Assembly (NCBI GenBank): GCA_965223415.1
Contig: OZ245002.1
Coordinates: 1,920,001-1,984,000, forward strand
Length of the DNA: 64,000 bases
Direction of reading: 5' to 3'
DNA from: Myxococcota bacterium
GTDB taxonomy: Bacteria > Myxococcota_A > UBA9160 > UBA6930
Shown here piece by piece: positions 1,671 to 41,103 of the stretch. The stretch's first letter is position 1, and each line of letters opens with the position of its first letter. The position numbers and the translations under genes were made by a program. The notes below the pieces were generated by a model. It made no database searches. It worked only from the letters and a program-made list of their open reading frames with translations, and had not been told where the DNA came from.

Positions 1671-3876
<2,206 letters not shown>

Positions 3877-6977: not shown

Positions 6978-7160
6978 ATGGCGACGATCAAGCAGGCCCT
7001 GACCCTGAAGCACCAGGCCAACCTCGGCGAAGAGGTCGAGGACGTGGAGCTCACCGCCGGTGAGGCCGTGACCGTGCTCAAGACCTGGGCGAACAGCTAC
7101 CTGATCAAGAACGACGGGGGCCTGCTGTTCAACGTGCCCAAGGACCAGGTCGAGGAGTAG
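6978..7160 (+). CDS. Small 60-aa hypothetical protein, possibly SH3-like
   Basis: Host-like codon usage; ELTAGEAVTVL..W...YLI pattern resembles SH3 barrels. Confidence 0.7.
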   Translation: MATIKQALTLKHQANLGEEVEDVELTAGEAVTVLKTWANSYLIKNDGGLLFNVPKDQVEE

Positions 7161-7255
7161 TGAGACAAGGGGACGTTCCTGACTGTCTCACTCCCCGAAG
7201 ACCGCTGGAGCGGACCGCTGGGAGTGAGACAGTCAGGAACGTCCCCTTGTCTCAC
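7160..7255. repeat. REP-like palindrome, copy 1 (perfect 36-bp inverted repeat, 24-nt spacer)
   Basis: 7160-7195 GTGAGACAAGGGGACGTTCCTGACTGTCTCACTCCC is the reverse complement of 7220-7255; lies between convergent genes. Confidence 0.93.
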
Positions 7256-8330: not shown

Positions 8331-9269
8331 CTAGTCCGCCTCCTGCTCGGCCAACCACCGCTCGGAATCGATCGCGGCCATGCATCCGGTTCCGGCGGCG
8401 GTGACGGCCTGGCGGTAGGTCGGGTCCATCGCGTCGCCGCAGGCGAAGACACCCTCCACGTTCGTCCGGCTGGAGCCGGGCTCCACCTTGATGTAGCCGG
8501 TGTCGTCGAGCTCGAGCTGTCCGCGAAGGCGATCAGTGTTCGGCTTGTGGCCGATGGCGATGAAGAGCGCCTCCACCGGGAGATCGCGCAGCTCGCCGGT
8601 GTGGACGTCCTTGATGCGCACGCCGGTCACGAACTCCTCGCCGAGCACCTCCTCGACGACCGCATTCCAGGCGAACTCGATCTTCTCGTGCTTCGTCGCC
8701 CGATCCGCCATGATCTTCGAGGCCCGCAGCTCGTCCCGCCGGTGGATCACCGTCACCTTCGGCGCGAAGCGGGTGAGGAAGAGCGCCTCCTCCATGGCGG
8801 TGTCGCCACCACCGACCACCGCCATCGCCTTGTCCCGGTAGAGGGCGCCGTCGCAGGTGGCGCAGGCCGAGACGCCGCGGTTCGTGAGCCGCTCCTCCGA
8901 GGGCAGGCCGAGCCAACGGGCCGAGGCGCCGGTGGCGAGGATGAGGGCGTCGGCGGTGAGCTTCCGTTCCTCGGTCTCGACCCGGAACGGCCGCTCGGAA
9001 AGGTCGATCTCAGTGGCGTCCTCGAAGTGGATGCGCGTGCCGAAGCGCTCCGCCTGCTTCTGGAACATGTCCATCATGTCCGGGCCGCTGACGCCTTCGG
9101 GAAAGCCCGGGTAGTTCTCCACGTCGGTGGTGAGCATGAGCTGGCCGCCGAACTGGAGGCCCGCCAGCATCACGGGCTCGAGCTCGGCCCGGGCCGCGTA
9201 GATGGCCGCGGTATAGCCCGCCGGCCCGCTTCCGATGATCAGCACCTTCACGTGCTGCGCGTCGCTCAC
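8331..9269 (-). CDS. trxB: Thioredoxin-disulfide reductase
   Basis: IIGSGPAG, GVSACATCDG, GGGDTA, YRQAVTAAG; GTG start at 9269 after GAGGAGG. Confidence 0.97.
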   Translation of the reverse strand: MSDAQHVKVLIIGSGPAGYTAAIYAARAELEPVMLAGLQFGGQLMLTTDVENYPGFPEGVSGPDMMDMFQKQAERFGTRIHFEDATEIDLSERPFRVETEERKLTADALILATGASARWLGLPSEERLTNRGVSACATCDGALYRDKAMAVVGGGDTAMEEALFLTRFAPKVTVIHRRDELRASKIMADRATKHEKIEFAWNAVVEEVLGEEFVTGVRIKDVHTGELRDLPVEALFIAIGHKPNTDRLRGQLELDDTGYIKVEPGSSRTNVEGVFACGDAMDPTYRQAVTAAGTGCMAAIDSERWLAEQEAD

Positions 9270-9319
9270 GCCGCACCCTCCTCGTCCGGCTGCGAGCCGC
9301 TCACGCCGCACCCTCCTCG
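9263..9319. repeat. 22-bp direct repeat duplicating the grxC stop / RBS / GTG junction
   Basis: CGCTCACGCCGCACCCTCCTCG at 9263-9284 and 9298-9319. Confidence 0.9.
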
Positions 9320-9567
9320 GCGAGCAGGGCGTCCAGCTCTCCGCGGCGCTCCAGCTCGGCCATGTCGTCGTAGCCGCCCACGTGGACCTCGCCAACGAAG
9401 ATCTGGGGGACGGAGGTTCGCTTGGCCCGCTGCAGCATCTCGTCCTCGCGCCGAGGATCGGCCTCGATGTCGTGCTCCACGAAGGTCTGCCCCTTCTGCT
9501 CGAGCAGGGCCTTGGCCCGGTGGCAATAGCCGCACCAGGAGCGCGTGTACATGACGATCTCGGCCAT
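9301..9567 (-). CDS. grxC: Glutaredoxin 3
   Basis: WCGYC active site, SVPQIF, GGYDD. Confidence 0.93.
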   Translation of the reverse strand: MAEIVMYTRSWCGYCHRAKALLEQKGQTFVEHDIEADPRREDEMLQRAKRTSVPQIFVGEVHVGGYDDMAELERRGELDALLAEEGAA

Positions 9568-9639: not shown

Positions 9640-11349
9640 CTAGAGGGGCTCCGTGAAGGGGGCGTCCTCCCACAGGAGCTGCAGGAAGGTCCCGATGAAG
9701 AAGGCCATGAAGCTCATCAGCAGGACGGCGGTGGGGAAGGCGTAGAGGGGCCCCAGGCCCAGCACCCGAGGCAGCTCGCCGACGAAGGGGGTGAGGGTGT
9801 GGGCGAGGACCTCGATGGGGGTTCCACCCAGGTCCGGGCCCCAGTTGCGGGCCGCCATCAGCGGGCCGAGCAGGCTCGTCACCATCAGGCCGAAGCCGGC
9901 GGATTCGACGATGCCGAGCAGGAAGATCGCCCGAGCCCGCGCGAAGGCCTCCGGCGGGTCCCCCAACCGGCGCTGCACCTCGACGTAGATGTAGAGCAGC
10001 GTCGTCGTGCCGAGCAGAGCGATGGTCGAGAGGATGTAGACGGGAGACTGCTGGGCGAGGTCCCAGACCTCGTCGATCAGGAAGACGGGCAGGTAGCCGA
10101 CGATGATGCCGGCGCCGATGCGGGGCACCGAAGCGTGGAAGAGGGTGAGGTCCTTGCGCCACATGAAGCGGTAGGCGAGGAACCAGAGCGCTGCGAGCAG
10201 CACGATCGCGACCTCAGCCGACACGAGCACGTCGAACACCCGCGGCCAACGGGTGTAGGCGAAGATGCTCGCCACGAACGGCAGCGCCGGCAGCGCCAGC
10301 GCCAGGGCGTAGTTGCGCGGGCGGTGGCGGGAGAGCACCCGCTCGCCGTCCTCGTCGCCGCGCCGCAGGGCGTCGGCGTGGTAGAGCATGGCCGCCGCGT
10401 GATGGATATCGTACTGGCGCAGGAACCAGTGCTCGAGGCGCTTCAGGATGCGCTGGCTGTCCCGCCCCTGCCGTCGCAGGAAGGGCGTGAGGTCGCGGCC
10501 GCGATCGAGCTCGCGGGCGCCGCCCTGGCTGATCGCCAGGAGCACCTCGGTCTCGCGATCCTCGAAGGGAGAGGCGGTGCTCTCGAAGGCCCGGTTGTCC
10601 TCGTCGAGACAGACCTCGTCCAGCCAGCGGGTGAACGCTCGCTCGGCCGCGCCCACCAGCTGCGGATCGATCTCGTCGGCCTGGCCGGAGGCCAGGGCGT
10701 AGAAGAAGGACGTGTCGTAGGGGTCGGCGGAGCGGGTGGGATCCGCCGTTCCGGCGCGGTAGCTCTCCAGGAACCCGGGCCGGACCCGGGCCTCCATCAC
10801 GGTGAGGAGCGAGCGCCAGACGAGCTTGCGCCAGTGGAAGCGGGCGAGGCGCAGCCGCGGGTGATCCACCAGGGCCTTGTCGTGGATGAAGCGCAGCACG
10901 ACCTGCCCGAACACGGCCACGTCCTCGCTCGCTCGAAGGAGCGGCGCCGAGCTCTCGCCCTCCCCGAGTCGCTCGAGGAGTGCCGCCAGGCTGGCGGGCA
11001 GGACGGCGAGGAGCTGCAGCACCAGCTCTTCGGCGTCGCGCTTGCCCGCCCGACTCCCGAGCAGCCCGGGCTGGGACCACAGGTCTTCGAGCCGCAGGTA
11101 GAGCTCGGCCGGATCGTGGCGATCGGCGTGGAACGAGAAGGTCTCGGGAAAGACGTTGCCGAAGCCGTCGCCCGTATCGCGCTCGAAGCGAACCTCCCGC
11201 GCATGGAACGCGTAGGTGCAGCGATACACCGTCCGCAGCCGCTCGATCCGGAACTCGAGGCGCGGGATGGCGGGGCGAGGGGGGCTCGCCGAGCCGCTCG
11301 GCACCTCGTCGGAGGGCGAATTGCTTCGGGTTCGCTCCGGTTCGCTCAA
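9640..11349 (-). CDS. Hypothetical protein: ~330-aa soluble N-terminus plus a multi-pass C-terminal membrane domain
   Basis: Protein-like 3' part of ORF 9640-12984; TTG at 11349 overlaps the upstream TGA; several hydrophobic helices. Confidence 0.78.
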   Translation of the reverse strand: MSEPERTRSNSPSDEVPSGSASPPRPAIPRLEFRIERLRTVYRCTYAFHAREVRFERDTGDGFGNVFPETFSFHADRHDPAELYLRLEDLWSQPGLLGSRAGKRDAEELVLQLLAVLPASLAALLERLGEGESSAPLLRASEDVAVFGQVVLRFIHDKALVDHPRLRLARFHWRKLVWRSLLTVMEARVRPGFLESYRAGTADPTRSADPYDTSFFYALASGQADEIDPQLVGAAERAFTRWLDEVCLDEDNRAFESTASPFEDRETEVLLAISQGGARELDRGRDLTPFLRRQGRDSQRILKRLEHWFLRQYDIHHAAAMLYHADALRRGDEDGERVLSRHRPRNYALALALPALPFVASIFAYTRWPRVFDVLVSAEVAIVLLAALWFLAYRFMWRKDLTLFHASVPRIGAGIIVGYLPVFLIDEVWDLAQQSPVYILSTIALLGTTTLLYIYVEVQRRLGDPPEAFARARAIFLLGIVESAGFGLMVTSLLGPLMAARNWGPDLGGTPIEVLAHTLTPFVGELPRVLGLGPLYAFPTAVLLMSFMAFFIGTFLQLLWEDAPFTEPL

Positions 11350-12488
11350 AGGACGGGCTGCTTCGGGTTCTCTCCGGTCTCGTAGTAGGCCTCCACGCGC
11401 TGGGCGAGCTCGCGCACGCGGACCGGAAGACGATCGGGGCTCGGCCAGCGAGAGGTAGCGACGCGCATCCGATCCACGAGCGGCTGCGCCTCCGGGAAGT
11501 CCTCCCTGGCGAGGGAATCGTCGACGGCCAGCCAGTACTCGATGGCGGTGAGGGTGCGCGAGGTGCGCTCGACGAGCTCGCTCATGCCGGGGGAGGCCAC
11601 CCCGGTGCCCTTCACCTGCTCCGCCAGCTGGCCGAGATCCTGGCGCGCCTGGGCTAGCGGCGCGCGCAGCTCTCCGTCGGTTCCGGCGAGGCACTCGATG
11701 ATCTCCTCGAAGCGCCGCTTCAGGGGCTCGTGCGAGATCTCGCGGCCGAGGATCACCTGGCCGAGCTCGCGGCCGTCGGGACTGAGCAGCGGATGCATCG
11801 CGACGCGCAGCTTGACGCCGTCGCCGCTCGGCAGGTCCACCTCCTCGTAGCTCACGTCCTCGTCCTGACGGATGCGGATGGCCGCCCCGCCGATCTTCTG
11901 GAGCGCCTCGGCGCCGAGCACGTCGTCCAGGGCCCGCCCGCGCGGATCGCCCGCGATCGCGAGGTACTCCCGGGCCGGCGCGTTCACCGCGCGTACGACG
12001 CCGTGAGCGTCCACCGCGAGGGCGCCGGTATCGAGCTGATCCATCACCGCCTGCAGGAAGGCGTTCGAATCGCGCAGGTCGCTGACCAGCCGCTCGTTCT
12101 CCTCGGCGAGCGCGTGGTGCTCCACCGCGCGCCGCACCACCTGCTTGAGGTCGTCGGGCTCCCAGGGCTTCGTGATGTAGGCGTAGACGTGGCCGTCGTT
12201 GATCGCGCGGATGATCGCGTCCATGTCCGCGAAGCCGGTGAGGATGATCCGCACCGTGGTCGGATGCCGCTCGAAGACCTTGGCCAGGAACTCGACCCCG
12301 GTCATCTCGGGCATGCGCTGGTCGGAGATGACGGCGGCGACGCCGCCCCCCTGCTCGAGCATCTCCAGTGCCTTCACCGCCGACGTGCTGGTGAGGACGT
12401 CGTAGTCCTCCTCGAAGGTGAAGCTCATCGTCTCGAGGATGGCCTCTTCGTCGTCGACGATGAGGATGCGAGCACGGTCGGTTTGCAT
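11346..12488 (-). CDS. Response regulator (REC + PAS + helical C-terminus)
   Basis: ILIVDDE, ISDQRMP, ILTG, TKPW; PAS-like segment after a coiled coil. Confidence 0.9.
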   Translation of the reverse strand: MQTDRARILIVDDEEAILETMSFTFEEDYDVLTSTSAVKALEMLEQGGGVAAVISDQRMPEMTGVEFLAKVFERHPTTVRIILTGFADMDAIIRAINDGHVYAYITKPWEPDDLKQVVRRAVEHHALAEENERLVSDLRDSNAFLQAVMDQLDTGALAVDAHGVVRAVNAPAREYLAIAGDPRGRALDDVLGAEALQKIGGAAIRIRQDEDVSYEEVDLPSGDGVKLRVAMHPLLSPDGRELGQVILGREISHEPLKRRFEEIIECLAGTDGELRAPLAQARQDLGQLAEQVKGTGVASPGMSELVERTSRTLTAIEYWLAVDDSLAREDFPEAQPLVDRMRVATSRWPSPDRLPVRVRELAQRVEAYYETGENPKQPVL

Positions 12489-12540
12489 CGCGGGGGGAGG
12501 GTAGCTGCCCTGATGGGAGGCCGCTTCGCTCCTCGGTGCG

Positions 12541-12723
12541 CGATCGCGGGGCGGCGGGTGGGCCCCGCGCGGAATGGCTCGGCCGGGGCGCCGGGGCCGC
12601 GTTGGGGCTCGCATGGAGGGGTCGCCGCTCTCGGCTTCGCCGGCGGCGACCTGTGTGCACGGCGGATGGTGTGCCTGCCTGCGCTTGATTTCCGCGCGGG
12701 GCCCACCCGCCGCCCCGCGGTCG
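12541..12723. ncRNA. Candidate structured non-coding element, unit A
   Basis: Perfect 30-bp closing stem (12545-12574 / 12690-12719) around a core shared with unit B. Confidence 0.5.
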
Positions 12724-12865
12724 GCTCGGGGTTTCGCGCCCCGGGGAATCGTCGCCGCCGCTTTCGGTTGGGGGGTGGGGGCAGCTCGAACGTCGGCGCC
12801 GGCTCCACCCCTTCTCTTCTCGAGCTGCGGGACGGATCGGCGTCCGTCCCCCAGGAGCCGCGGTT

Positions 12866-13040
12866 CGCCGGCTCCGGGCGCAGGTCGGGCGGAAGTACAG
12901 CGCAGGCAGGCACGACGACCGCCGTGCGCTCAGGTTGCCGCCGGCCGAAGGCCGGAAGCGGCGACCCCTCCATGCGAGCCCCAACGCGGCCTCAGCGCCC
13001 CGGCCGAGCCATGGAGCCCGACCTGCGCCCGGAGCCGGCG
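12866..13040. ncRNA. Candidate structured non-coding element, unit B (inverted relative to A)
   Basis: Perfect 25-bp closing stem (12866-12890 / 13016-13040); core 12889-13012 is an inverted, diverged copy of 12574-12695. Confidence 0.5.
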
Positions 13041-13070
13041 GCTCGAAGCCCGCAGAAGAAGCGAAGCGGC

Positions 13071-13622
13071 CTAAGCCCCCCGCTTCTTCTTCGCCCGGGC
13101 CTCCCGCTCCTGGATCTTCCCCCGCAGCTCCTTCCGCTTTGCTTCGAGACGGGGGGCCAGGCGTGCCTTGGCGGTGTCGGTCCAGAAGCGCTGCTCGGAG
13201 CCCTCGCGGAAAGCCTTGAACTTGCGGTAGCCCCAGAGCTCGTGCTCGAGATCCTCTTCGACGAACTTGATCATGATCGCGTCGTCGAGGAAGCCGACCA
13301 GCGGGACGTCGTCGGGGATCACGTCGCGCGGGTTGTCGAAGTAGGCGAGGGCGGCGACAGCACGGCTGACGACGCTCTTCGGCGCCTTGTACTGCAGGTC
13401 GTTCACCATCTGCATCAGGTCTTCGAGCGAGGTGATGGCGTCGCTCACGAAGGTCGGGACCTTCTTGGTCTCCCGCACCTCCCGGATCAGCTTCCGCACA
13501 CCCCGGGAGATCTTCGGCCAGTCCTCGGCATCGGCGTTGCGCTTGGCCGCCCGGTAGATGGACTCGAAGTAGGCGGTATCCGACTCGTCCAGGGTGAACG
13601 AGATCCTCATCTTCCGGGCCAT
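13071..13622 (-). CDS. YkvA/DUF1232 family protein
   Basis: ALAYFDNPRDVIPDDVPLVGFLDDA motif. Confidence 0.85.
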   Translation of the reverse strand: MARKMRISFTLDESDTAYFESIYRAAKRNADAEDWPKISRGVRKLIREVRETKKVPTFVSDAITSLEDLMQMVNDLQYKAPKSVVSRAVAALAYFDNPRDVIPDDVPLVGFLDDAIMIKFVEEDLEHELWGYRKFKAFREGSEQRFWTDTAKARLAPRLEAKRKELRGKIQEREARAKKKRGA

Positions 13623-25619: not shown

Positions 25620-26993
25620 ATGCCCCGGGTGCTGGTCGTCGACGACGAGACGGGCGTCCGCGAATCCCTGCGCATGCTCCTCAAGCAGGAGTGCGAGGTG
25701 GTGACGGCGGACGGCGCGGACGCGGGCCTGCGCGCCATGGCCGAGCTGCCGATGGACCTGGTGCTCCTCGATCTCGTGATGCCGGGCAAGAGCGGGCTCG
25801 CCTTCCTGGAGGAGCTGGCGGAGCAGGCGGACGCGCCGCCGGTCATCGTGCTGACGGCGACGAAGACGGTGACCACCGCGGTCGAGGCCATGAAGCTCGG
25901 CGCCGCCGACTACGTGACCAAGCCCTACGAGATCGACGCCCTGCGCATCAAGGTCCGCCAGCTCATCCAACACCGCGCCCTCGAGCGGGAGGTCGTGCGG
26001 CTCACCGACGAGCTGGACCAGCGGACCCGGGTCGGCGACCTGATCGGCCGCAGCGACGCCATGCGCGAGGTGTTCCGCACCATCGACCGGCTGGCGCTCT
26101 CACCGGCCACGGTGTTGGTGCAGGGCGAGAGCGGAACCGGCAAGGAGCTGGCCGCCCGGGCGCTGCACGATCTCTCGCCCCGGGCCGCCGCGCCCTTCGT
26201 CGCGGTGAACTGCGCCGCCATCCCCGACACGTTGATGGAGAGCGAGCTCTTCGGCCATGAGCGCGGCGCCTTCACCGATGCGCGGGACCGGCGCATCGGC
26301 AAGTTCGAGGCGGCGGCCGGCGGCACTCTCTTCCTCGACGAGATCGGCGAGCTGGCGCCGGGCCCCCAGGCCAAGCTGCTCCGCGCCCTCCAGGAGCGGG
26401 TGATCGAGCGGGTCGGCGGCAACCAGACGATCGAGGTGGACGCGCGCATCATCGCCGCCACCAACCGCAACCTGGAGCACGAGGTGGCCGAGGGACGCTT
26501 CCGCGAAGACCTCTACTACCGCATCCACGTCGTGCCGCTGGTGCTGCCGCCGCTGCGGGAGCGCCGGGAGGACGTGAAGCTCCTGGCCGAGCGCTTCCTC
26601 AAGCTGGCCCGCGAGCGCGACGGGCGCGGCCCGTCGCGCATCGGGCGGGATGCGCTCCTCGCCCTCGAGCGCCATCCCTGGCCCGGCAACGTCCGCGAGC
26701 TCGAGAACGTGATCGAACGCGCCTTCACGCTGTGCGACGGCGACACCCTGGGCATCGGCGACCTGCCGGAATCCCTGGCTCGCGGCGCCCGTGCCGACAC
26801 CCTCCGCGACAGCCTGCAGGCGGGGCGCCTCTCCCTGGAGGACACCGTCTCGAGCTTCGAGCAGGAACTCCTCCGCGAGGCCCTCGAGCGCAACGACTGG
26901 AACCAGACCCGAACCGCCGAAGCCCTCGGCACGACCCGCCGCCTGCTCAAGATCAAGATGGACAAGCACGGCCTGTCCAAGCCGGAGCCGTGA
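25620..26993 (+). CDS. Sigma-54-dependent response regulator (NtrC/AtoC family)
   Basis: REC; GESGTGKE; ESELFGHERGAFTDA; LFLDEIGE; WPGNVREL; C-terminal Fis-type HTH. Confidence 0.95.
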   Translation: MPRVLVVDDETGVRESLRMLLKQECEVVTADGADAGLRAMAELPMDLVLLDLVMPGKSGLAFLEELAEQADAPPVIVLTATKTVTTAVEAMKLGAADYVTKPYEIDALRIKVRQLIQHRALEREVVRLTDELDQRTRVGDLIGRSDAMREVFRTIDRLALSPATVLVQGESGTGKELAARALHDLSPRAAAPFVAVNCAAIPDTLMESELFGHERGAFTDARDRRIGKFEAAAGGTLFLDEIGELAPGPQAKLLRALQERVIERVGGNQTIEVDARIIAATNRNLEHEVAEGRFREDLYYRIHVVPLVLPPLRERREDVKLLAERFLKLARERDGRGPSRIGRDALLALERHPWPGNVRELENVIERAFTLCDGDTLGIGDLPESLARGARADTLRDSLQAGRLSLEDTVSSFEQELLREALERNDWNQTRTAEALGTTRRLLKIKMDKHGLSKPEP

Positions 26994-27058
26994 GACAAGG
27001 GGACGTTCCTGTCTGTCTCACTCTGGAGTGAGACAGACAGGAACGTCCCCTTGTCTCA
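26991..27058. repeat. REP-like palindrome, copy 2 (perfect 33-bp inverted repeat, 2-nt spacer)
   Basis: 26991-27023 TGAGACAAGGGGACGTTCCTGTCTGTCTCACTC is the reverse complement of 27026-27058. Confidence 0.93.
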
Positions 27059-27063
27059 GCTAG

Positions 27064-28333
27064 CAGGCTGCTGAAAAACCCTGCGTTTCCGTGTTCTCGA
27101 TGGTAGAAGATGGGTCGGGGGGAGAGAGGATGCGCGGCAGCGACCGAGAGCAGGGTTCGATGTTCAGCTACGTCTCGCTGGAGACGCGGATTCCGGAGGA
27201 TCATCCGCTTCGCCCCATGCGGGCGATGGTGGACGAGGCGCTGAGGGGCCTGTCTCGGCGGTTCTCGGAGCTCTACGCGTCGACGGGCCGGCCGTCGATC
27301 CCACCGGAGCGGCTGCTGCGGGCTCTGTTGCTGCAGGTGCTCTACTCGATCCGGAGTGAGCGCCAGCTGATGGAGCAGCTCGAGTACAACCTGCTGTTCC
27401 GTTGGTTCGTAGGGCTGGGGATGGAGGATGCGGTCTGGGTCCCGACGGTCTTCACGAAGAACCGGGACCGGCTGCTGGAAGGGGACGTGGCGGAGGCGTT
27501 CTTTGAGGCGGTGCTGGCGCAGGGAAAGGACCACGGCCTTCTGTCGTCGGAGCACTTCACGGTGGATGGCACGCTGATCGAGGCGTGGGCGAGCCAGAAG
27601 AGCTTCCGGGCGAAGGACGGCTCGGGGGACGACGGAGACGACGATCCGGGCAACCCGACGGTGAACTTTCGGGGAGAGCGGCGGAGCAACGCGACGCACG
27701 AATCGACGACGGATCCCGAGGCGCGGCTGGCGCGCAAGAAGGGCCAGACCTCGCAGCTGGCCTACATGGGCCATCTGCTGACGGAGAACCGCAACGGCCT
27801 GATCGTCTCGGCGCTGCTGACGGAGGCCGATGGCTACGCCGAGCGGCTGGCAGCGCTGGAGATGGCGGAGGACGTGGCGGGAAGGCGCCGGATCACGCTG
27901 GGCGGGGACAAGGGCTACGACACCGAGGAGTTCGTGGCGGGCTGCCGGAAGCGCAACATCACGCCGCACGTGGCGCAGCACACGACGAATCGGGCCAGCC
28001 GGATCGACGGTCGCACGGTCCGTCACGAGGGCTACGCGATCAGCCAGCACAAACGCAAGCGGATCGAGGAGTGCTTCGGTTGGATGAAGACGGTCGGGGG
28101 AATGCGAAAGACGCGTCACCGGGGCACGGATCGGGTCGGGTGGATGTTCGTCTTCACGGCGGCGGTCTACAACCTGGTCCGCATACGCAACCTCGTAGAG
28201 GTCACATGACGCACCTGCATCGAGACGAGGTACCCCGGATCACTTCCGGGATCGAAGAGCGAGCCGAGCGGGCCGCGGGGACCCGCGCCCTCTGGCGTTC
28301 TGGCGCCTCTCAGCGCCGAATTTCAGCAGCCTG
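27064..28333 (+). mobile_element. IS5-family insertion sequence, copy 1 (1270 bp)
   Basis: 13-bp terminal IRs CAGGCTGCTGAAA / TTTCAGCAGCCTG; CTAG on both flanks (27060-63, 28334-37). Confidence 0.93.
27130..28209 (+). CDS. IS5-family DDE transposase
   Basis: DHPLR, GRPSIPPERLL, VDGTLI, GDKGYD, RKRIEECFGW. Confidence 0.95.
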   Translation: MRGSDREQGSMFSYVSLETRIPEDHPLRPMRAMVDEALRGLSRRFSELYASTGRPSIPPERLLRALLLQVLYSIRSERQLMEQLEYNLLFRWFVGLGMEDAVWVPTVFTKNRDRLLEGDVAEAFFEAVLAQGKDHGLLSSEHFTVDGTLIEAWASQKSFRAKDGSGDDGDDDPGNPTVNFRGERRSNATHESTTDPEARLARKKGQTSQLAYMGHLLTENRNGLIVSALLTEADGYAERLAALEMAEDVAGRRRITLGGDKGYDTEEFVAGCRKRNITPHVAQHTTNRASRIDGRTVRHEGYAISQHKRKRIEECFGWMKTVGGMRKTRHRGTDRVGWMFVFTAAVYNLVRIRNLVEVT

Positions 28334-28873
28334 CTAGCGGATCCAGCCGGGCAGGCAGCCGGCGCGGCGGCACTCCTCCTCCAGGCCCTCGGCGAGGTAC
28401 TGGCTGAGCTCTGCGTGGGCCTCCTGGAGGCGGCCGTACTCCTCCTGGACGTCGCTGCACTCGATGGTTCGGCGACGGCCCAGGTCGTCGGTGGTGTAGA
28501 CGCCGTCGCCGCGGTTGCACCAGCCGGCGACCTTCCGCAGGGTGGGGAGCTGCTGGTCGAGCTGGGCGAGCTGCTGCTCTGCGCGCTGCTTCTTGGTGCG
28601 CCAGCGGGCGGCGTCAGCTTCGTCGTTGATCGTCTGGCGGCGGGCGCGGGGCTCCGCGACCGCCGGACGCGGAGCAGGCTCCAGGCGCGCCGCCGGCGCC
28701 ACGCTCTGGATCTTCTTCTTCGGCTCGTGCTTCTTCGCGCCGGGACACTGGCTGGCGTCGCCGGTGAAGCGCACCTGGCCGTCCGGGCCGGTGCATCGGT
28801 AGATCTCCGCCGCGGCGGGCGCGGCCACCGATACGGCGAACAAGGCGATCAGCAACACGACTCGCGTTGTCAT
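28334..28873 (-). CDS. DUF4124-like secreted protein
   Basis: Signal peptide, then IYRCTGPDGQVRFT and a coiled coil; its stop codon is the IS target CTAG. Confidence 0.78.
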   Translation of the reverse strand: MTTRVVLLIALFAVSVAAPAAAEIYRCTGPDGQVRFTGDASQCPGAKKHEPKKKIQSVAPAARLEPAPRPAVAEPRARRQTINDEADAARWRTKKQRAEQQLAQLDQQLPTLRKVAGWCNRGDGVYTTDDLGRRRTIECSDVQEEYGRLQEAHAELSQYLAEGLEEECRRAGCLPGWIR

Positions 28874-31908: not shown

Positions 31909-32649
31909 ATGACCCTGGACGAGGCGTTACCGCTCACGGAGCACCTGGCCGAGCTCCGCACGCGGCTCTTCAAGATCCTGATCGCCTGGGGGATCGGCTT
32001 CGCCGGCGCGTGGAACTTCAGCGAGCAGATCTTCGGCTACCTGCTCGAGCCGGCGACCCAGGCGCTGGGCGACGGCGGGAAGCTCCAGGCCATCGCACCG
32101 ACGGAGATCTTCTTCACCTATCTGAAGTGCGCGCTCCTCGCGGGCTTCGTGTTCGCGTTGCCCGTGATCTTCTGGCAGCTCTGGGCGTTCATCGCGCCGG
32201 GGCTCTATCCCTCGGAGAAGAAGGTCGCCTTGCCCTTCGTGGTGTGCTCGACCCTGCTCTTCGCCGGCGGCGGCGCCTTCGGCTACTTCCTCGTCTTCCC
32301 GCTGGTCTACGACTTCTTCGCCGGCTTCAGCAGCAGCTTCGTCGAGTCCGCCTGGACCATGAAGGAAGTCTTCTCCCTCACGACGCGGCTCCTGCTGGCC
32401 TTCGGCACCGGCTTCGAGCTACCGGTGCTGGTCTTCTTCCTCTCCGCCGCGGGCATCGTCGACCCGAGCCAGTTCATCGGCGGGCTCAAGTACGCGGTGC
32501 TGGTGTCCTTCGTGTTCGCCGCCGTGCTCACGCCCCCCGACATCGTGAGCCAGGTGCTGCTCGCGGTGCCACTGGTGGTGCTCTACGTGCTGGGCGTCGG
32601 CGTGGCCTACCTGTTCGCGCCGAGGAGGGACGACGGTGGCTCCGGGTGA
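31909..32649 (+). CDS. tatC: Twin-arginine translocase subunit TatC
   Basis: EHLAELRTRL, FIAPGLYPSE, FELP, LTPPD. Confidence 0.96.
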   Translation: MTLDEALPLTEHLAELRTRLFKILIAWGIGFAGAWNFSEQIFGYLLEPATQALGDGGKLQAIAPTEIFFTYLKCALLAGFVFALPVIFWQLWAFIAPGLYPSEKKVALPFVVCSTLLFAGGGAFGYFLVFPLVYDFFAGFSSSFVESAWTMKEVFSLTTRLLLAFGTGFELPVLVFFLSAAGIVDPSQFIGGLKYAVLVSFVFAAVLTPPDIVSQVLLAVPLVVLYVLGVGVAYLFAPRRDDGGSG

Positions 32650-33770
32650 GGCCCGCCCTGGGCCACGATGAGCACCAGGTCGTCCCCGGCCACCCGATCG
32701 CGGGTGGAGTCCCGGAGCCGGTTGGGGCCGAGCGAGTAGAGCGTGAGGCGCCTTCCGCCGTCGCGGCTGCACGCATCGCGCACCCAGTAGGGTGAGCTCC
32801 AGGGGTCGAGGACGTACTCGGCCCGCACCGGATCGAGACCGCGCGTGGTGAGTTCGCGGAAGCGCCCGCCCGCCAGGGCGGCTTCCGATTGGCGCGCGGC
32901 GAGGCGATAGACGCGCTTGTGCTGGCCGCAGCGCGTGCGCACGCGGCCCGCGCGGAAGTCGCGGGCCAGGGCCGCGAGCTCGGACCGTGCCGCGTCCAGC
33001 GCTGCGGGATCGGAGGCCCGGCTGCGCGACCAGCCGGTGGAGCCGGCCGCCAACAGGAGCACGACCGCGGCGGTCGCCAGCGACACCCGGGCCGGTGCCC
33101 GCGCCCGGCCGCGAGCGAGCCGGAGCAGGGAATCGGCCGCCAGACCGATCCCGAGCAGGAGCTCGACCCACTCCCCCGTGAAGCGGAAGGGGTAGACGGC
33201 GTACAGCGCCGCGGCGCCTACGAAGCCGAGTGCGACACCGGGAGCGGGCGCCTCGATGCCCAGGCGTCGACCCGTGTCCCGGAGCCGGCCGACCCGCACG
33301 AAGAGGGGGAGACCGAGCCCGTAGCCCAGCAGCACGACCTGCAGGCCGAGCTGGCGCAGGTCCTTCGGCAGGACGTTGTGGAGGTTCAGCTCCTGCTGGT
33401 CATTGTGAGCGAGGAAGTAGTCGGGCGGCTGGAGACCGAGGAGCCGTTGCCCCCAGGAAATCTCCTCGCCGGCCACGACGAGGCAACCGAGCGACGCCAG
33501 GGCGGGGAAGACGAAGGACCAGCCGGAGGCCCGGAAGGCGAGGACGCCGAAGGCTCCCGCCGCGGCGACGAGGCTCCAGACGGTGGCCCACTCGACGGGT
33601 CCGTCTTCCTGGAGCAGGCGGTCGTGGAGCTCGGGAGCGAGGGTGTGGAGCAGGCCCGCGGCGAGGACGACCGCCACCGCGAGGAGGCCGACCGCGTGCT
33701 CCGTCCGAAACGCGAGGACGGGGCGCCCGAGCCTTGCCGGCCGGACACCCCGCGGGTTCGCCGACACCAC
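32607..33770 (-). CDS. Multi-pass membrane protein with a GspG-like C-terminal motif, paralog 1
   Basis: QEDGPVEWAT, GEEISWGQR, HNDQQELNLHN, LDPWSSPY, YSLGPN. Confidence 0.8.
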   Translation of the reverse strand: MVSANPRGVRPARLGRPVLAFRTEHAVGLLAVAVVLAAGLLHTLAPELHDRLLQEDGPVEWATVWSLVAAAGAFGVLAFRASGWSFVFPALASLGCLVVAGEEISWGQRLLGLQPPDYFLAHNDQQELNLHNVLPKDLRQLGLQVVLLGYGLGLPLFVRVGRLRDTGRRLGIEAPAPGVALGFVGAAALYAVYPFRFTGEWVELLLGIGLAADSLLRLARGRARAPARVSLATAAVVLLLAAGSTGWSRSRASDPAALDAARSELAALARDFRAGRVRTRCGQHKRVYRLAARQSEAALAGGRFRELTTRGLDPVRAEYVLDPWSSPYWVRDACSRDGGRRLTLYSLGPNRLRDSTRDRVAGDDLVLIVAQGGPHPEPPSSLLGANR

Positions 33771-33774
33771 CTAG

Positions 33775-35044
33775 CAGGCTGCTGAAATTCGGCGCTGAGA
33801 GGCGCCAGAACGCCAGAGGGCGCGGGTCCCCGCGGCCCGCTCGGCTCGCTCTTCGATCCCGGAAGTGATCCGGGGTACCTCGTCTCGATGCAGGTGCGTC
33901 ATGTGACCTCTACGAGGTTGCGTATGCGGACCAGGTTGTAGACCGCCGCCGTGAAGACGAACATCCACCCGACCCGATCCGTGCCCCGGTGACGCGTCTT
34001 TCGCATTCCCCCGACCGTCTTCATCCAACCGAAGCACTCCTCGATCCGCTTGCGTTTGTGCTGGCTGATCGCGTAGCCCTCGTGACGGACCGTGCGACCG
34101 TCGATCCGGCTGGCCCGATTCGTCGTGTGCTGCGCCACGTGCGGCGTGATGTTGCGCTTCCGGCAGCCCGCCACGAACTCCTCGGTGTCGTAGCCCTTGT
34201 CCCCGCCCAGCGTGATCCGGCGCCTTCCCGCCACGTCCTCCGCCATCTCCAGCGCTGCCAGCCGCTCGGCGTAGCCATCGGCCTCCGTCAGCAGCGCCGA
34301 GACGATCAGGCCGTTGCGGTTCTCCGTCAGCAGATGGCCCATGTAGGCCAGCTGCGAGGTCTGGCCCTTCTTGCGCGCCAGCCGCGCCTCGGGATCCGTC
34401 GTCGATTCGTGCGTCGCGTTGCTCCGCCGCTCTCCCCGAAAGTTCACCGTCGGGTTGCCCGGATCGTCGTCTCCGTCGTCCCCCGAGCCGTCCTTCGCCC
34501 GGAAGCTCTTCTGGCTCGCCCACGCCTCGATCAGCGTGCCATCCACCGTGAAGTGCTCCGACGACAGAAGGCCGTGGTCCTTTCCCTGCGCCAGCACCGC
34601 CTCAAAGAACGCCTCCGCCACGTCCCCTTCCAGCAGCCGGTCCCGGTTCTTCGTGAAGACCGTCGGGACCCAGACCGCATCCTCCATCCCCAGCCCTACG
34701 AACCAACGGAACAGCAGGTTGTACTCGAGCTGCTCCATCAGCTGGCGCTCACTCCGGATCGAGTAGAGCACCTGCAGCAACAGAGCCCGCAGCAGCCGCT
34801 CCGGTGGGATCGACGGCCGGCCCGTCGACGCGTAGAGCTCCGAGAACCGCCGAGACAGGCCCCTCAGCGCCTCGTCCACCATCGCCCGCATGGGGCGAAG
34901 CGGATGATCCTCCGGAATCCGCGTCTCCAGCGAGACGTAGCTGAACATCGAACCCTGCTCTCGGTCGCTGCCGCGCATCCTCTCTCCCCCCGACCCATCT
35001 TCTACCATCGAGAACACGGAAACGCAGGGTTTTTCAGCAGCCTG
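33775..35044 (-). mobile_element. IS5-family insertion sequence, copy 2 (inverted)
   Basis: Same IRs, same length and identical transposase translation; CTAG at 33771-74 and 35045-48. Confidence 0.93.
33899..34978 (-). CDS. IS5-family DDE transposase
   Basis: Translation identical to 27130-28209. Confidence 0.95.
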   Translation of the reverse strand: MRGSDREQGSMFSYVSLETRIPEDHPLRPMRAMVDEALRGLSRRFSELYASTGRPSIPPERLLRALLLQVLYSIRSERQLMEQLEYNLLFRWFVGLGMEDAVWVPTVFTKNRDRLLEGDVAEAFFEAVLAQGKDHGLLSSEHFTVDGTLIEAWASQKSFRAKDGSGDDGDDDPGNPTVNFRGERRSNATHESTTDPEARLARKKGQTSQLAYMGHLLTENRNGLIVSALLTEADGYAERLAALEMAEDVAGRRRITLGGDKGYDTEEFVAGCRKRNITPHVAQHTTNRASRIDGRTVRHEGYAISQHKRKRIEECFGWMKTVGGMRKTRHRGTDRVGWMFVFTAAVYNLVRIRNLVEVT

Positions 35045-37033
35045 CTAGCGCCGGCGTGACCGACGGCGCCGCTTCTTCTTGCGCTTCTTGCGCTCCTTCT
35101 TCGTCAGTTTCTTCCCGGTGGGAGCCACGGTCGCCGGCTGCACCCGGCACTGGCGGTCGCTGTTCTTCGTGTCCACGGTGCCGGCCGGCCAGCTTCCCGT
35201 GCCGGACGAGACGTCGACGCGCACCGCGCGCGGCGCCGTCGCCACCGCGGCCGTGAGCAAGAAGTCTCCACTCGGATCGACCGTCCCGTTCGCCAGCTTG
35301 GCGCCCGAGTCGGCGTCATAGGCGTCGGCACTGCCGCCGGGCGGGCCGGCCTTGCCCTTCACCTCGAGGGTGCCGCAGGACCACCAGGCCGATCGGGCAT
35401 GGCTGGCCACCTCGACACCGCACTTCGCCGGAGCGCCGCGCACGCTGATCTCGGTGCTCGCCGGTGCGTCGATCCCCACCGTCACCGAGCACGGTGCCAT
35501 GAAGGGCATGAGCAAGATCATGAAGTCGCCGGCCTGGTCGCCCCAGCCGTAACCGAGGAGGGCACCGCTGTCGCCGTCGAACACGGCGATGCGCTCGCCC
35601 GGGTTGGCGCCGTGGCCCGTGACGGTCAGCGAGCCGAGGGACGAACGCCAGCGCCGAGCCCACGCGGGATCCGCGAAGTCGAGCATCCTCGGCTTGTGGG
35701 GGCCGGCGGTGCTCGGCTCGGCGCTGGGGGCCGAGCTGGAGTCCGAGTCGTCCGAATCATCGGAGTCGGCATCCGCGTCGCCATCGGAGTCCTCGGAATC
35801 CGAGTCGTCCCCGGACTCGTCGTCCCCGAAGCTCCACCAGGCGTCGTCCAGGACCAGGTTGCCGGACGTGACCGGATCCGTCGCCTTCATCTGGAAGGTC
35901 TCACGGGCGGACTCGACCGGGCTGCCGTCGTCGCTCACCGTGACGGTCACGGAGAAGCTGGCCGCCACGCTGGGCGTCCACAGGATCTCGGCGGTCCCAT
36001 CACCGAAGTCGGTGTAGGTGGCGTCCGCGGGGAGACCGCTGAACGCGTAGCCGAGGCCATCCTGGTCCGGGTCCGTCGCCGTCAGCAGCACCTGGAGGGT
36101 CATGCCCACGAGGACGCTGCGGTCGCCGACCGGCGTCAGCATCGGCGGACGGTTCACGTTGCCCACCGTGAGGGTGAAGCCCTCGGTGGCGCTCAAGGAA
36201 GGCGTGCCGTCATCGGTCGCCGTGGCCGTGAGGGCGTGGTTTCCGGCGGCGCCCGGCGTCCAGTCGAAGCTGCCGGTGCCGTCGCCGTTGTCGGCAAAGT
36301 TCGCGCCGGCGGGCAACGGGCTCACGTCGAGGGTGAGCATGTCGCCGTCCGGGTCGGTCGCGGATACGGCGATGCTCACCGGAACGCCGATGGACAGGCT
36401 CTGGTCGGCGATCGCAGTGATGGCCGGCGGCTGGTTGGCCGCCTGACCGACGCTGATCGTGACGACCTCCATCGCCGTCGCCATCGGAACGCCGTCGTCC
36501 GTCGCGTTGAAGGTGACCTGGAAGCTCCCGACCTGGCCCGCCCCCGGCGTCCAGGTGAAGGTGCCGGTGCCGTTCCCGTTGTCGGTGAACTGATGCCCGT
36601 TCGGGCCGTTGGCCACCGCGAGGGCGATGCCGTGGCCGTCGGGATCCCTCGCGCTCACCGGGATGGTGAGGAGCATGCCCTGGGTGGCGGTCTGCGGGCC
36701 GATCGCCGCGAGGACCGGCGGGTTGTTGGCGACCTGCGGGCAGAAGACGCTGTGATCGCGACCACCCCGGTCCCAGGCGTCCCCCTGGGCGCTCACATTG
36801 CCGCTAGACGGGAGGTTCGCGGGGAAGGGACCGTTGTTGTGACACAGCTTGCACTCGTTGAAGAACTCGTTGGGGTCGACGAGATCGGCGAAGGGCGTCG
36901 TCCCGGAGGTCGACGAGCAGAAGGCGTCGACCGCGGGGCCGTAGCCGGGGTCGTCCTTGGCCTGGGCCGTCACCGCCACGAAGAGCGCACACAGGAGCGC
37001 TGCCGTGGTGCGCTGGAGAGACGAGCGGAGCAT
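35045..37033 (-). CDS. Secreted protein with CxxCH motif, three Ig/cadherin-like repeats, Asp/Ser tract and basic tail
   Basis: Signal peptide; CKLCH; repeats NxPP...ATDPDGD...DNGDGT..FxWTP...ATDDG; ends KKERKKRKKKRRRRSRRR. Confidence 0.85.
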   Translation of the reverse strand: MLRSSLQRTTAALLCALFVAVTAQAKDDPGYGPAVDAFCSSTSGTTPFADLVDPNEFFNECKLCHNNGPFPANLPSSGNVSAQGDAWDRGGRDHSVFCPQVANNPPVLAAIGPQTATQGMLLTIPVSARDPDGHGIALAVANGPNGHQFTDNGNGTGTFTWTPGAGQVGSFQVTFNATDDGVPMATAMEVVTISVGQAANQPPAITAIADQSLSIGVPVSIAVSATDPDGDMLTLDVSPLPAGANFADNGDGTGSFDWTPGAAGNHALTATATDDGTPSLSATEGFTLTVGNVNRPPMLTPVGDRSVLVGMTLQVLLTATDPDQDGLGYAFSGLPADATYTDFGDGTAEILWTPSVAASFSVTVTVSDDGSPVESARETFQMKATDPVTSGNLVLDDAWWSFGDDESGDDSDSEDSDGDADADSDDSDDSDSSSAPSAEPSTAGPHKPRMLDFADPAWARRWRSSLGSLTVTGHGANPGERIAVFDGDSGALLGYGWGDQAGDFMILLMPFMAPCSVTVGIDAPASTEISVRGAPAKCGVEVASHARSAWWSCGTLEVKGKAGPPGGSADAYDADSGAKLANGTVDPSGDFLLTAAVATAPRAVRVDVSSGTGSWPAGTVDTKNSDRQCRVQPATVAPTGKKLTKKERKKRKKKRRRRSRRR

Positions 37034-40035: not shown

Positions 40036-41094
40036 CTAGGGCTCCTCGGGCTCCGCGACCCACTCGAGGATCGTCTCGGCCACGTCGTCGGGACGAACCT
40101 CGGCGCGGGTGGAGTCGCGCCTGCGGTTCGGGCCGAACGAGTAGACGCGGATGCGGCGGGTCCCGTCGTCCTCGCAGCGATCCATCACCCAGTAGGGCTG
40201 AGCCCAGGGGTCGAGGAACCAGCGGGCCCGCTCCTCGGGCAGGCCGGGAAGCGAGGCGAAGGCGCCGTCCTTCAGGCCCTCGAGGCCGTCGTCCACGATC
40301 ACGTGGTAGAGGCGGCGGTGCAGCCCGCACTCGGTGCGCAGGCGCCCCTCGCGCCAGTCCTCGTGGAGTGCGGCCAGCTCCGCGGCCGCCTTGTGGCCGG
40401 CGTCCGGGTCCTCGGGGCGTAGCGCCGTGAGCGCGGCCGGCGTCGCCGCGGCGAGGAGCACGACACCCGCCACGGAAGGCAGGAGTGCCGTAGCTGCGGG
40501 CAGCGCGCCGACCAGGAAGCCGAGCCCCATGGCGAGCTCCACCCACTCGCCGACGAAGCGCCACGGGTAGGCGACGTAGAGCGCCCAGGTGGCGACGAAG
40601 CCCACGGCGAGCGACGCGGGCGGCGGCACCACGCCGAAACGCTGCAGCAGCGGCCGCACGCGCTGCCACCGCCCGAGCAGCGGGAGCAGCAGCCCGTAGC
40701 CGAGTAGCACCGCCTGCACCGCCAGCTTGCGCGTGTCGTCCCCGATCGTGTTGTGCCAGGTGAACTCCTGCTGCTCGTTGTGCGCGAGGAAGTAGTCCGG
40801 CGACTGGAAGCCGAAGAGCCGCTGGCCCCAGGAGATCTCCTCGCCGGCCACGACGGCGCAGAAGGTCGCGAGTGCAAGGCCGTAGGCGACCGCCAGGCCG
40901 CGGCGCGAGAGGCCCAGGTGCAGGTGAACACCGGCCGCGACCAGGAAGGCCCAGACCGTGGCCCACTCGACGGGACCGTCCTCCTGGGACACGCGGTAGT
41001 AGGCGTCGGGCGACGCCGCCTGGAGGACGCCGCCCGCTGCGAGCACGGCGAGGAGCAGGGCGGGCCCGAGCCACGAGGACGCGCGGTCGGCCAT
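40036..41094 (-). CDS. Multi-pass membrane protein with a GspG-like C-terminal motif, paralog 2
   Basis: QEDGPVEWAT, GEEISWGQR, LDPWAQPY, YSFGPN. Confidence 0.8.
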   Translation of the reverse strand: MADRASSWLGPALLLAVLAAGGVLQAASPDAYYRVSQEDGPVEWATVWAFLVAAGVHLHLGLSRRGLAVAYGLALATFCAVVAGEEISWGQRLFGFQSPDYFLAHNEQQEFTWHNTIGDDTRKLAVQAVLLGYGLLLPLLGRWQRVRPLLQRFGVVPPPASLAVGFVATWALYVAYPWRFVGEWVELAMGLGFLVGALPAATALLPSVAGVVLLAAATPAALTALRPEDPDAGHKAAAELAALHEDWREGRLRTECGLHRRLYHVIVDDGLEGLKDGAFASLPGLPEERARWFLDPWAQPYWVMDRCEDDGTRRIRVYSFGPNRRRDSTRAEVRPDDVAETILEWVAEPEEP

Positions 41095-41103
41095 GGTCGG
41101 ACT

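Follow-up and report, generated by a model that had tools for sequence, protein, structure and literature searches.

Twin inverted units with long, unrelated closing stems, between two genes of a Myxococcota-like genome, resemble the outcome of DNA copying errors more than a retron or an established new RNA

Introduction

Retrons were first found in the Myxococcota. Among other elements that are bounded by inverted repeats, MITEs have terminal repeats that are conserved between copies, and they are flanked by direct target duplications. A general description of retrons (PMC7736814) defines them as a reverse transcriptase (RT) with a contiguous noncoding RNA (ncRNA), transcribed as one RNA. As set out there, the ncRNA comprises an msr with one to three hairpins, followed by a long stable msd stem-loop by the 3' repeat, and a conserved branching G ends the 5' repeat. 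REPs, according to PMC3733652, are 20-40 nt long and present in high copy number, and it is the palindrome sequence itself that is conserved; RAYT transposases are described as typically single-copy (PMC5581495).

Inverted repeats can also arise from errors of replication. Template switching, as presented in PMC8794818, writes perfect hairpin stems, fixes existing pairing and makes multibase "compensatory" changes in single events. It is further reported to homogenize and expand the arms of inverted repeats (PMC13100816; PMC8604942) and to lead to multinucleotide changes (PMC8604942). These mechanism papers treat rRNA genes and yeast promoters, not elements of the kind discussed here.

We have analyzed a pair of inverted units that an earlier reading of the same DNA, the original prediction, described as structured noncoding elements and likened to retron msr-msd RNAs or to a new class of RNA. 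The observation itself is confirmed; its interpretation as a retron or a new RNA class is mostly unsupported, and the units look more like the product of a DNA copying error than like a retron or a proven new RNA.

Results

Genomic context

The window, by which we mean the whole 64-kb stretch of DNA analyzed, has a G+C content of about 71% and a housekeeping gene content (RNase E/G, L21, Obg, ProB/ProA and GlnA) together with many two-component genes. The twin units occupy a 582-bp intergenic gap, and the two genes that border it both lie on the minus strand:

11346-12488, minus strand: response regulator with a PAS domain (Pfam Response_reg and PAS_4)
13071-13622, minus strand: DUF1232 protein gene (Pfam DUF1232; stop codon at 13071-13073)

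The start of the response regulator can be fixed at 12488 because homologs of 380-381 aa cover about 100% of the protein. This leaves 52 nt between its start codon and unit A; about 30 nt separate the DUF1232 stop codon from unit B. The relatives of the response regulator include proteins at 72-88% identity, the nearest being 88% identical; the closest named ones come from MAGs labeled Myxococcota or Deltaproteobacteria. No promoter-like site of the sigma-70 type was found at the locus, and the only terminator-like site outside the units is a weak one at the DUF1232 stop. A sigma-54-like TGGC...GC, seen by eye at the start of the core, was unconvincing and was dropped. A search for tRNA and tmRNA genes gave none, and the tandem repeats are trivial ones only.

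The sole mobile genes in the window are two identical 1,279-bp IS5-like copies (27059-28337 and 33771-35049), whose ends are unrelated to the twin units. Long perfect palindromes occur elsewhere in the window at 7160-7255 and 26991-27058; they have 2-nt centers and arms of 33-47 nt and form one repeat family, beyond which the 64 kb hold no other unique long perfect inverted repeat.

Anatomy of the two units

The original prediction was of twin inverted cores of about 120 nt and about 87% identity (about 14 substitutions and two indels), each core closed by a long stem of its own. Both parts were borne out. In a blastn alignment of 127 columns, 12574-12698 and the reverse complement of 12886-13012 are 86.6% identical (E 1.6e-37). 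A repeat search reports this homology in two parts, one of 62 nt (94%) and one of 60 nt (82%). When the gaps in the apical hairpin are placed symmetrically, the alignment has 125 columns, in which the cores differ by 15 substitutions and by two indels of 1 nt. The parts of the locus are as follows:

12518-12533: outer-flank motif, left copy, AGGCCGCTTCGCTCCT, in the response-regulator 5' leader, 32 nt outside the basal stem of unit A
12541-12574: closing stem of unit A, outer arm; pairs with 12690-12723 (33 Watson-Crick pairs and one G.T of 34)
12566-12698, plus strand: conserved module copy A, a basal 9-bp inverted repeat CGCGCGGAA...TTCCGCGCG and a core of about 115 nt
12620-12651: central hairpin of copy A, 9 bp GGTCGCCGC/GCGGCGACC, a 3-nt bulge, then 4 bp capped by TTC (GAA on the opposite strand)
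12690-12723: closing stem of unit A, inner arm; pairs with 12541-12574
12724-12865: spacer between the units, 142 nt, its halves not mirror images
12866-12890: closing stem of unit B, inner arm; pairs with 13016-13040 (25/25 Watson-Crick)
12886-13020, minus strand: conserved module copy B, a 5-bp basal repeat CGGGC/GCCCG and a core of about 125 nt
12933-12966: central hairpin of copy B, with one additional apical base pair relative to copy A
13016-13040: closing stem of unit B, outer arm; pairs with 12866-12890
13057-13072: outer-flank motif, right copy, AGAAGCGAAGCGGCCT, overlapping the DUF1232 stop codon, 36 nt outside the basal stem of unit B

Pooled, the two closing stems contain 58 Watson-Crick pairs and a single G.T among 59. 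They had been said to share no evident sequence. This is true of their outer parts, which are unrelated (491 of 500 shuffles align equally well), and not of the innermost 5-9 bp, which both stems have in common (CGCGCGGAA/TTCCGCGCG, with CGCGC/GCGCG, against CGGGC/GCCCG). The basal stem shows one both-sided swap between the copies, from C-G to G-C. In both copies, the core homology ends sharply and symmetrically at this basal repeat.

The flanks of the units behave differently on their two sides. On the outside, the 16-nt motif is inverted-repeated with 15 of 16 positions identical, a score that only one of 500 shuffles reached; a 13-mer within it is exact at both sites and has no further exact copy in the window. 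This motif was absent from the original description of the locus. On the inside, 73 of 500 shuffles of the spacer flanks scored as well as the real sequence, which rules out the spacer as a diverged palindrome, and the fold z scores there are -0.79 and -1.22. No direct repeats flank the units or the whole 12518-13072 block.

Folding statistics

Dinucleotide shuffles of the whole units fold far less stably than the units themselves, whichever strand is taken (z -7.5, -6.4, -10.3 and -6.7). Without their closing stems, the cores are at shuffle level, with z scores of +0.62 and -0.30 for the sense strand and -1.87 and -1.10 for the antisense strand, again against dinucleotide shuffles. The excess stability thus resides wholly in the closing stems, and the proposal that the two cores fold alike counts for nothing. 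Folded as one piece, the 612-nt region forms a single giant hairpin (z -14.3, 20 shuffles).

Within the core, the central hairpin is the sole feature that stands out structurally. The copy A hairpin appears in all folds, and its 9-bp perfect stem is matched by 17 of 1000 shuffles of core A. The hairpin of core B has a mismatch; the longest perfect stem there is 6 bp, which is ordinary (755 of 1000 shuffles). As predicted, the two indels between the copies add one apical pair symmetrically, converting CGGC-TTC-GCCG into CGGCC-TTC-GGCCG. The apical GAA triloop with its C-G closure is kept in both copies. d(GCGAAGC)-type DNA mini-hairpins are stable, and the apical GAA triloop resembles such hairpins. 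The GCGAAGC noted in unit A is indeed present, at 12634-12640 on the minus strand; with 35 occurrences in the window against 23 expected, it is not distinctive, and we have ruled it out as a special signal.

The claim that substitutions fall mostly in loops received moderate support. Taking eight minimum free energy (MFE) folds as references (both copies, both strands, RNA and DNA parameters), we found that differences between the copies were depleted at paired positions in 8/8 tests, with hypergeometric P values from 0.27 to 0.001; the lowest came from the antisense fold of copy A. RNAalifold tables list ten both-sided changes, all of them in the closing stems, nine in the unrelated outer parts and one being the basal swap; none lies inside the core interior. 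In the core region, the only compensated changes are the symmetric 1-bp insertion and the one basal swap. Evidence from wobble pairs about the strand is conflicting. In the central hairpin of copy B, one G has become A, which leaves a C.A on the sense strand but a U.G on the plus strand. A G.U pair is seen in that hairpin only on the antisense strand (copy B); in the third hairpin it is seen only on the sense strand (copy A). One change is tolerated only on the A(-)/B(+) strands and another only on A(+)/B(-).

We also estimated by hand how many changes the stems should have collected. With 12% pairwise core divergence, about 7 hits would be expected over 118 nt of arm, had the arms been as old as the duplication; there is one imperfect pair (Poisson P about 0.007), implying that the stems either are younger than the duplication or have been actively homogenized or kept perfect. 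By a similar hand estimate, an invariant block of 35 nt in the core is not significant at 12% divergence (P about 0.13), and the core sequence gives no strong indication of purifying selection.

Searches for relatives and coding potential

Rfam 15, searched over the whole window at gathering thresholds, gave no match. With the limit relaxed to E <= 10, the segment 12300-13300 gave nine matches, none at E <= 1 and all far below gathering scores; the best had an E value of 1.1-1.3. All nine were to eukaryotic miRNA or lncRNA models or to sRNA models, none of them a retron RNA.

A covariance model built from the two cores and run over the window with filters off scored copy B at 144.9 bits and copy A at 132.1 bits; the next best score was 20.8 bits, inside a PBP gene. 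Neither this model nor blastn found a third copy in the 64 kb, and the count of two applies to this window. Plasmid and phage collections searched with 12541-13044 by blastn in distant mode returned no match. In species-representative genomes, the central 19-mer occurred at one locus, in a Proteobacteria MAG, with 21 nt shared. We regard this as chance; its covariance score of 20.6 bits equals the noise level of 20.8, and blastn found nothing between it and the window.

Spurious ORFs called over relatives were sought by translating the region in three frame pairs. phmmer of these translations against 1.84 billion representatives gave a single match (P0121), a protein with tandem repeats of 59-aa period that matches at 38% identity and is spurious as a relative; two word-indexed protein searches, which covered proteins of about 92-301 aa, gave nothing. 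Neither long ORF over the region contains a Pfam family. A coding reading is ruled out, as copy B meets a stop after 6 codons in the frame of the core ATG and the copies differ by 2 nt in length. The pair is accordingly noncoding and, as whole units with z scores of -6.4 to -10.3, structured, as had been proposed. With two copies and no relatives retrieved, the proposed family of RNAs or single-stranded DNAs (ssDNAs) of about 175-180 nt is not supported.

We examined 68 translations from the window (8 + 46 + 14, annotated-looking genes plus alternative frames in the gaps). They include no RVT-type reverse transcriptase, consistent with the original statement that the window encodes none, and no HUH/Y1 transposase, RAYT, integrase, recombinase or relaxase. 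The neighbors of the copies are the response regulator and the DUF1232 protein, neither of them an RT or HUH gene. PADLOC, run on 26 proteins, detected no retron or other defense system near the locus. In the open-access literature on retrons, Myxococcota palindromic or intergenic repeats, REPIN/RAYT and template switching, we found no description of such an element. The feature is real and noncoding, and no membership was identified in any of the families searched.

Discussion

We tentatively propose that a small module underwent inverted duplication and that independent template switching during replication then extended its basal repeat into long palindromes. The starting module would have been a lineage-specific, noncoding, GC-rich segment of about 133 nt, with a 9-bp basal inverted repeat around an interior of about 115 nt that contains one robust central hairpin; its two copies now stand head-to-head. 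In a first step, inverted duplication would have made the pair and carried the 16-nt flank motif along, the duplicated segment running from that motif into the module and ending at the module's inner basal repeat. In a second, template switching would have started from the basal inverted repeat of the module itself, in each copy independently. Folding back to copy itself, the nascent strand would have replaced about 20-25 nt of outer flank with the reverse complement of the nonhomologous inner flank. The anatomy and the statistics are direct observations; the order of events and the mechanism are deduced from them, and we regard both as possible rather than probable.

Several features suggest this scheme. 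The mirrored flank motif, together with the mirrored core, points to an inverted duplication. That the outer flank motif is mirrored (1/500 shuffles) while the inner flanks are not (73/500) counts for the scheme, as do the reverse-complement arms that lie beside a short inverted repeat able to nucleate them, namely the 5-9-bp basal repeat at the inner end of the stems. The distance from motif to basal stem, 32 nt in one unit and 36 nt in the other despite arms that differ in length and sequence, fits an overwrite that preserves length. The scheme would account at once for the long perfect palindromic stems, for the lack of relationship between those of A and B, for the near-pure Watson-Crick pairing and for the preserved distance between motif and core. 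A pairing tally of 58 Watson-Crick and one G.T in 59, with the 1-bp insertion and the basal swap as the only compensated changes in the core region, is what DNA-level template switching would be expected to leave. This bears on the argument that conserved structure without conserved sequence marks a functional family: the stems do differ and nevertheless pair, but that pattern is also what template switching would produce, and stems made at the DNA level do not testify to RNA covariation. Of loop-inversion signatures of template switching within the core, a single one was seen by eye, a GGA/TCC inversion of 3 nt at the base of unit B; it was noticed post hoc and is not counted.

The main difficulty for template switching is that it requires two independent expansions, to 25-34 bp, at both copies of one module, a coincidence that selection for a long basal helix would lead one to expect equally. 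Since the window holds no other unique long perfect inverted repeat, either the basal repeat is a mutational hot spot or a long helix is selected. The avoidance of paired positions (P 0.001-0.27) and the symmetric 1-bp apical insertion also fit a selected fold. Selection for the helix, the idea behind the original prediction, is the main rival, one that we consider unlikely. It would make the units paralogous structured small RNAs that depend on a long basal helix, whatever its sequence, to enclose a conserved core; the helix might, for example, be processed by RNase III or protect the ends. A functional pair of this kind may hold because the differences between the copies avoid paired positions, most strongly in the antisense fold of copy A (P 0.001). 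The closing helix is kept in both copies despite its unrelated sequence, the apical insertion is accompanied by one compensated basal swap, the central-hairpin G-to-A change becomes a U.G wobble on the A(-)/B(+) strands, and the site is intergenic with no common reading frame (the stop after 6 codons in copy B; the 2-nt difference in length). Template switching is, moreover, described as able to make the stems of genuine RNA genes as well (PMC8794818). Against small RNAs stand the shuffle-level folding of the core alone, the single wobble in 59 closing pairs, the contradictory strand evidence from the G.U pairs of the third and central hairpins, an invariant 35-nt block that falls short of significance (P about 0.13 by hand), the lack of a promoter-like site and of any terminator-like site outside the units except one weak one, and the failure to find an Rfam match or a conserved relative in the databases searched. 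Less likely still, in our estimate, is the stronger form in which the two units are paralogs of a new class of structured RNA in bacteria, or of an ssDNA templated by RNA, whose activity depends on a long perfect helix, arbitrary in sequence, that encloses the conserved core of about 115 nt. That such a helix serves, for example, as a processing scaffold or as a decoy presenting double-stranded RNA, with stems rewritten repeatedly under selection for perfection, seems similarly improbable.

A nonautonomous mobile element of about 133 nt with 9-bp terminal inverted repeats could have inserted independently into the centers of two different, pre-existing long palindromes or hairpins. The sharp, symmetric boundary of homology at the basal repeat in both copies is what one would expect of it, the genome does carry long perfect palindromes with 2-nt centers and similar arms of 33-47 nt (7160-7255 and 26991-27058), and insertion sequences that target REP palindromes have been documented (PMC1525189). 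It would, however, need two unique 25-34-bp palindromes 140 nt apart where the 64 kb contain no other unique one, and it leaves unexplained why the outer-flank motif is mirrored at a matching distance; target-site duplications are not seen, there is no third copy in the window, and the only transposases in the window are the two IS5-like copies, with unrelated ends. We judge this origin improbable. We give even lower odds to a cis-acting DNA site at which extruded hairpins or cruciforms are bound by a protein, such as a recombination site, a single-strand origin or a nucleoid-structuring site. Pairing that can be called purely Watson-Crick (58 and one G.T of 59) and is equally strong on both strands would suit it, as would the GAA triloop kept with its C-G closure in both copies; but the 68 translations include no recombinase, relaxase or HUH gene, GCGAAGC is common in the window, and the housekeeping neighbors give no sign of a mobile or replicative context. 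Least credible of all is that the units are orphan or trans-served retron msr-msd RNAs that produce msDNA. They do have terminal inverted repeats of 25-34 nt around internal hairpins, as in the general msr-msd description of PMC7736814, in a host that is Myxococcota-like. Yet neither the 68 translations nor the 26 proteins given to PADLOC contain an RT or a retron component, no Rfam retron RNA matches at E <= 10, the longest internal hairpin is central, with a further 40-50 nt between it and the 3' arm whichever way a unit is read, and head-to-head twins are not a retron layout.

The stems could possibly matter to expression. A transcript crossing the region would be expected to form an extremely stable hairpin, either in each unit or over the whole quasi-palindrome of about 555 nt. 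Where transcription runs on from the DUF1232 operon into the response-regulator gene, such a hairpin could act as a terminator, an insulator or a mark for processing. If template switching is the true explanation, the locus is a clean bacterial case in which replication errors have written long perfect stems around a short inverted repeat already present, twice independently. It would have yielded the very pattern, structure conserved and sequence not, from which a functional RNA is usually taken to be proved, and it would call for care wherever covariation is used to discover RNAs in GC-rich genomes. Should the stems be under selection instead, the pair would mark an undescribed Myxococcota RNA, with an unusual need for a long perfect helix, just upstream of a response-regulator gene. 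On either reading, current knowledge of defense or mobile systems is unchanged.

Among the known kinds compared, the units work least like a retron. The likeness consists in long terminal repeats that, like a1/a2, can hybridize (arms of 34 nt and 25 nt) and close a region with internal hairpins. The units differ in having no contiguous, co-transcribed RT, their neighbors being the response regulator and the DUF1232 protein; in having no Rfam match; in being head-to-head twins; and apparently in the order of their hairpins, the longest of which (13-14 bp) is central in both orientations, with no long msd-type hairpin against the 3' arm. The supposed resemblance to msr-msd breaks down at the defining feature, the contiguous RT, and retron membership fails.

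REPINs offer a closer likeness of layout. As described in PMC3337134 and PMC3116915, they are intergenic and consist of two inverted hairpin units around a spacer, the doublet itself being foldable into a long hairpin; here, too, the units are head-to-head, around a 142-nt spacer. They are, though, about 183 nt long, five to nine times longer, and the pattern of conservation is reversed, with variable stems and a conserved loop. In place of short, conserved palindromes in many copies, there is one pair in 64 kb with unrelated arms, and no RAYT/Y1 transposase is found among the 68 window translations. MITEs are likewise small, noncoding, intergenic and bounded by inverted repeats; the stem arms of the present units are unrelated (491/500 shuffles), and there is no direct target duplication.

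The closest mechanistic class is that of inverted repeats generated by template switching. In the accounts of PMC8794818 and PMC13100816, these share with our units the adjoining perfect reverse-complement arms, the one-step multibase "compensatory" changes and the growth of arms from a short pre-existing inverted repeat. Most described events are short, with stems of a few to about 10 bp and short spacers; the twin units have arms of 25-34 bp around a "loop" of 115-125 nt, and the process has apparently happened twice, in two copies of one module. Within that class, they would be exceptional for their size and for being duplicated.

A Short Match to the Core in Another Genome

The single locus (L001) returned when species-representative genomes were scanned with the central 19-mer of the core is an exact 21-nt match to the core's most conserved part, at 3672-3692 of MAG contig JAEYTQ010000598.1. 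The match is intergenic in a Proteobacteria MAG, and the 7-bp GC hairpin that comes after it is unrelated. Because the covariance model built from the two cores scores this locus at 20.6 bits, the same as the noise level within the window, we judged it to be a chance match.

Other Features of the Window

Immediately downstream of the response-regulator gene lies an ORF that is probably cotranscribed with it.

9643-11343, minus strand: 567-aa ORF

This ORF has no Pfam family; its sole match, a weak one, is to the PADLOC model "6TM membrane protein with globular N-terminal domain" (E 1.2e-06).

Diverged direct repeats (70-76% identity across both pairs) look like paralogous gene segments. One pair, 33294-33656 and 40669-41031, lies inside ORFs 32607-33770 and 40036-41103, both without a Pfam family; the other, 42858-43159 and 45322-45806, lies inside the two biotin-carboxylase-type genes. 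Two copies of a 35-nt tandem direct repeat (9254-9323, 86% identity) sit close to the 5' end of a pyridine nucleotide-disulphide oxidoreductase ORF.

Two IS5-family-like insertion sequences are 100% identical, 5.4 kb apart and inverted in orientation, each with a DUF772 + DDE_Tnp_1 transposase.

27059-28337, plus strand: copy 1, 1,279 bp
33771-35049, minus strand: copy 2, 1,279 bp

Between them are aspartyl-protease-like, HD-GYP-like response regulator and TatA/TatC genes and one unknown gene; the whole could be composite-transposon-like or an invertible segment.

A Second Palindromic Repeat Family

A second palindromic family, unrelated to the twin units, occurs at 7154-7255 and 26984-27058. 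Between its two arms, GTGAGACAAGGGGACGTTCCTG.CTGTCTCACTC, lie 2 nt; each arm is 33-47 nt long and is the nearly perfect inverted counterpart of the other. The 7154-7255 copy has an additional, imperfect inner palindrome in its centre, and an IS5-like insertion adjoins the other (26991-27058). Because every single arm forms a small hairpin on its own (GTGAGACA...TGTCTCAC), the layout is a REPIN-like doublet (in REPINs, two inverted REP hairpins with a spacer are mobilised by RAYT transposases).
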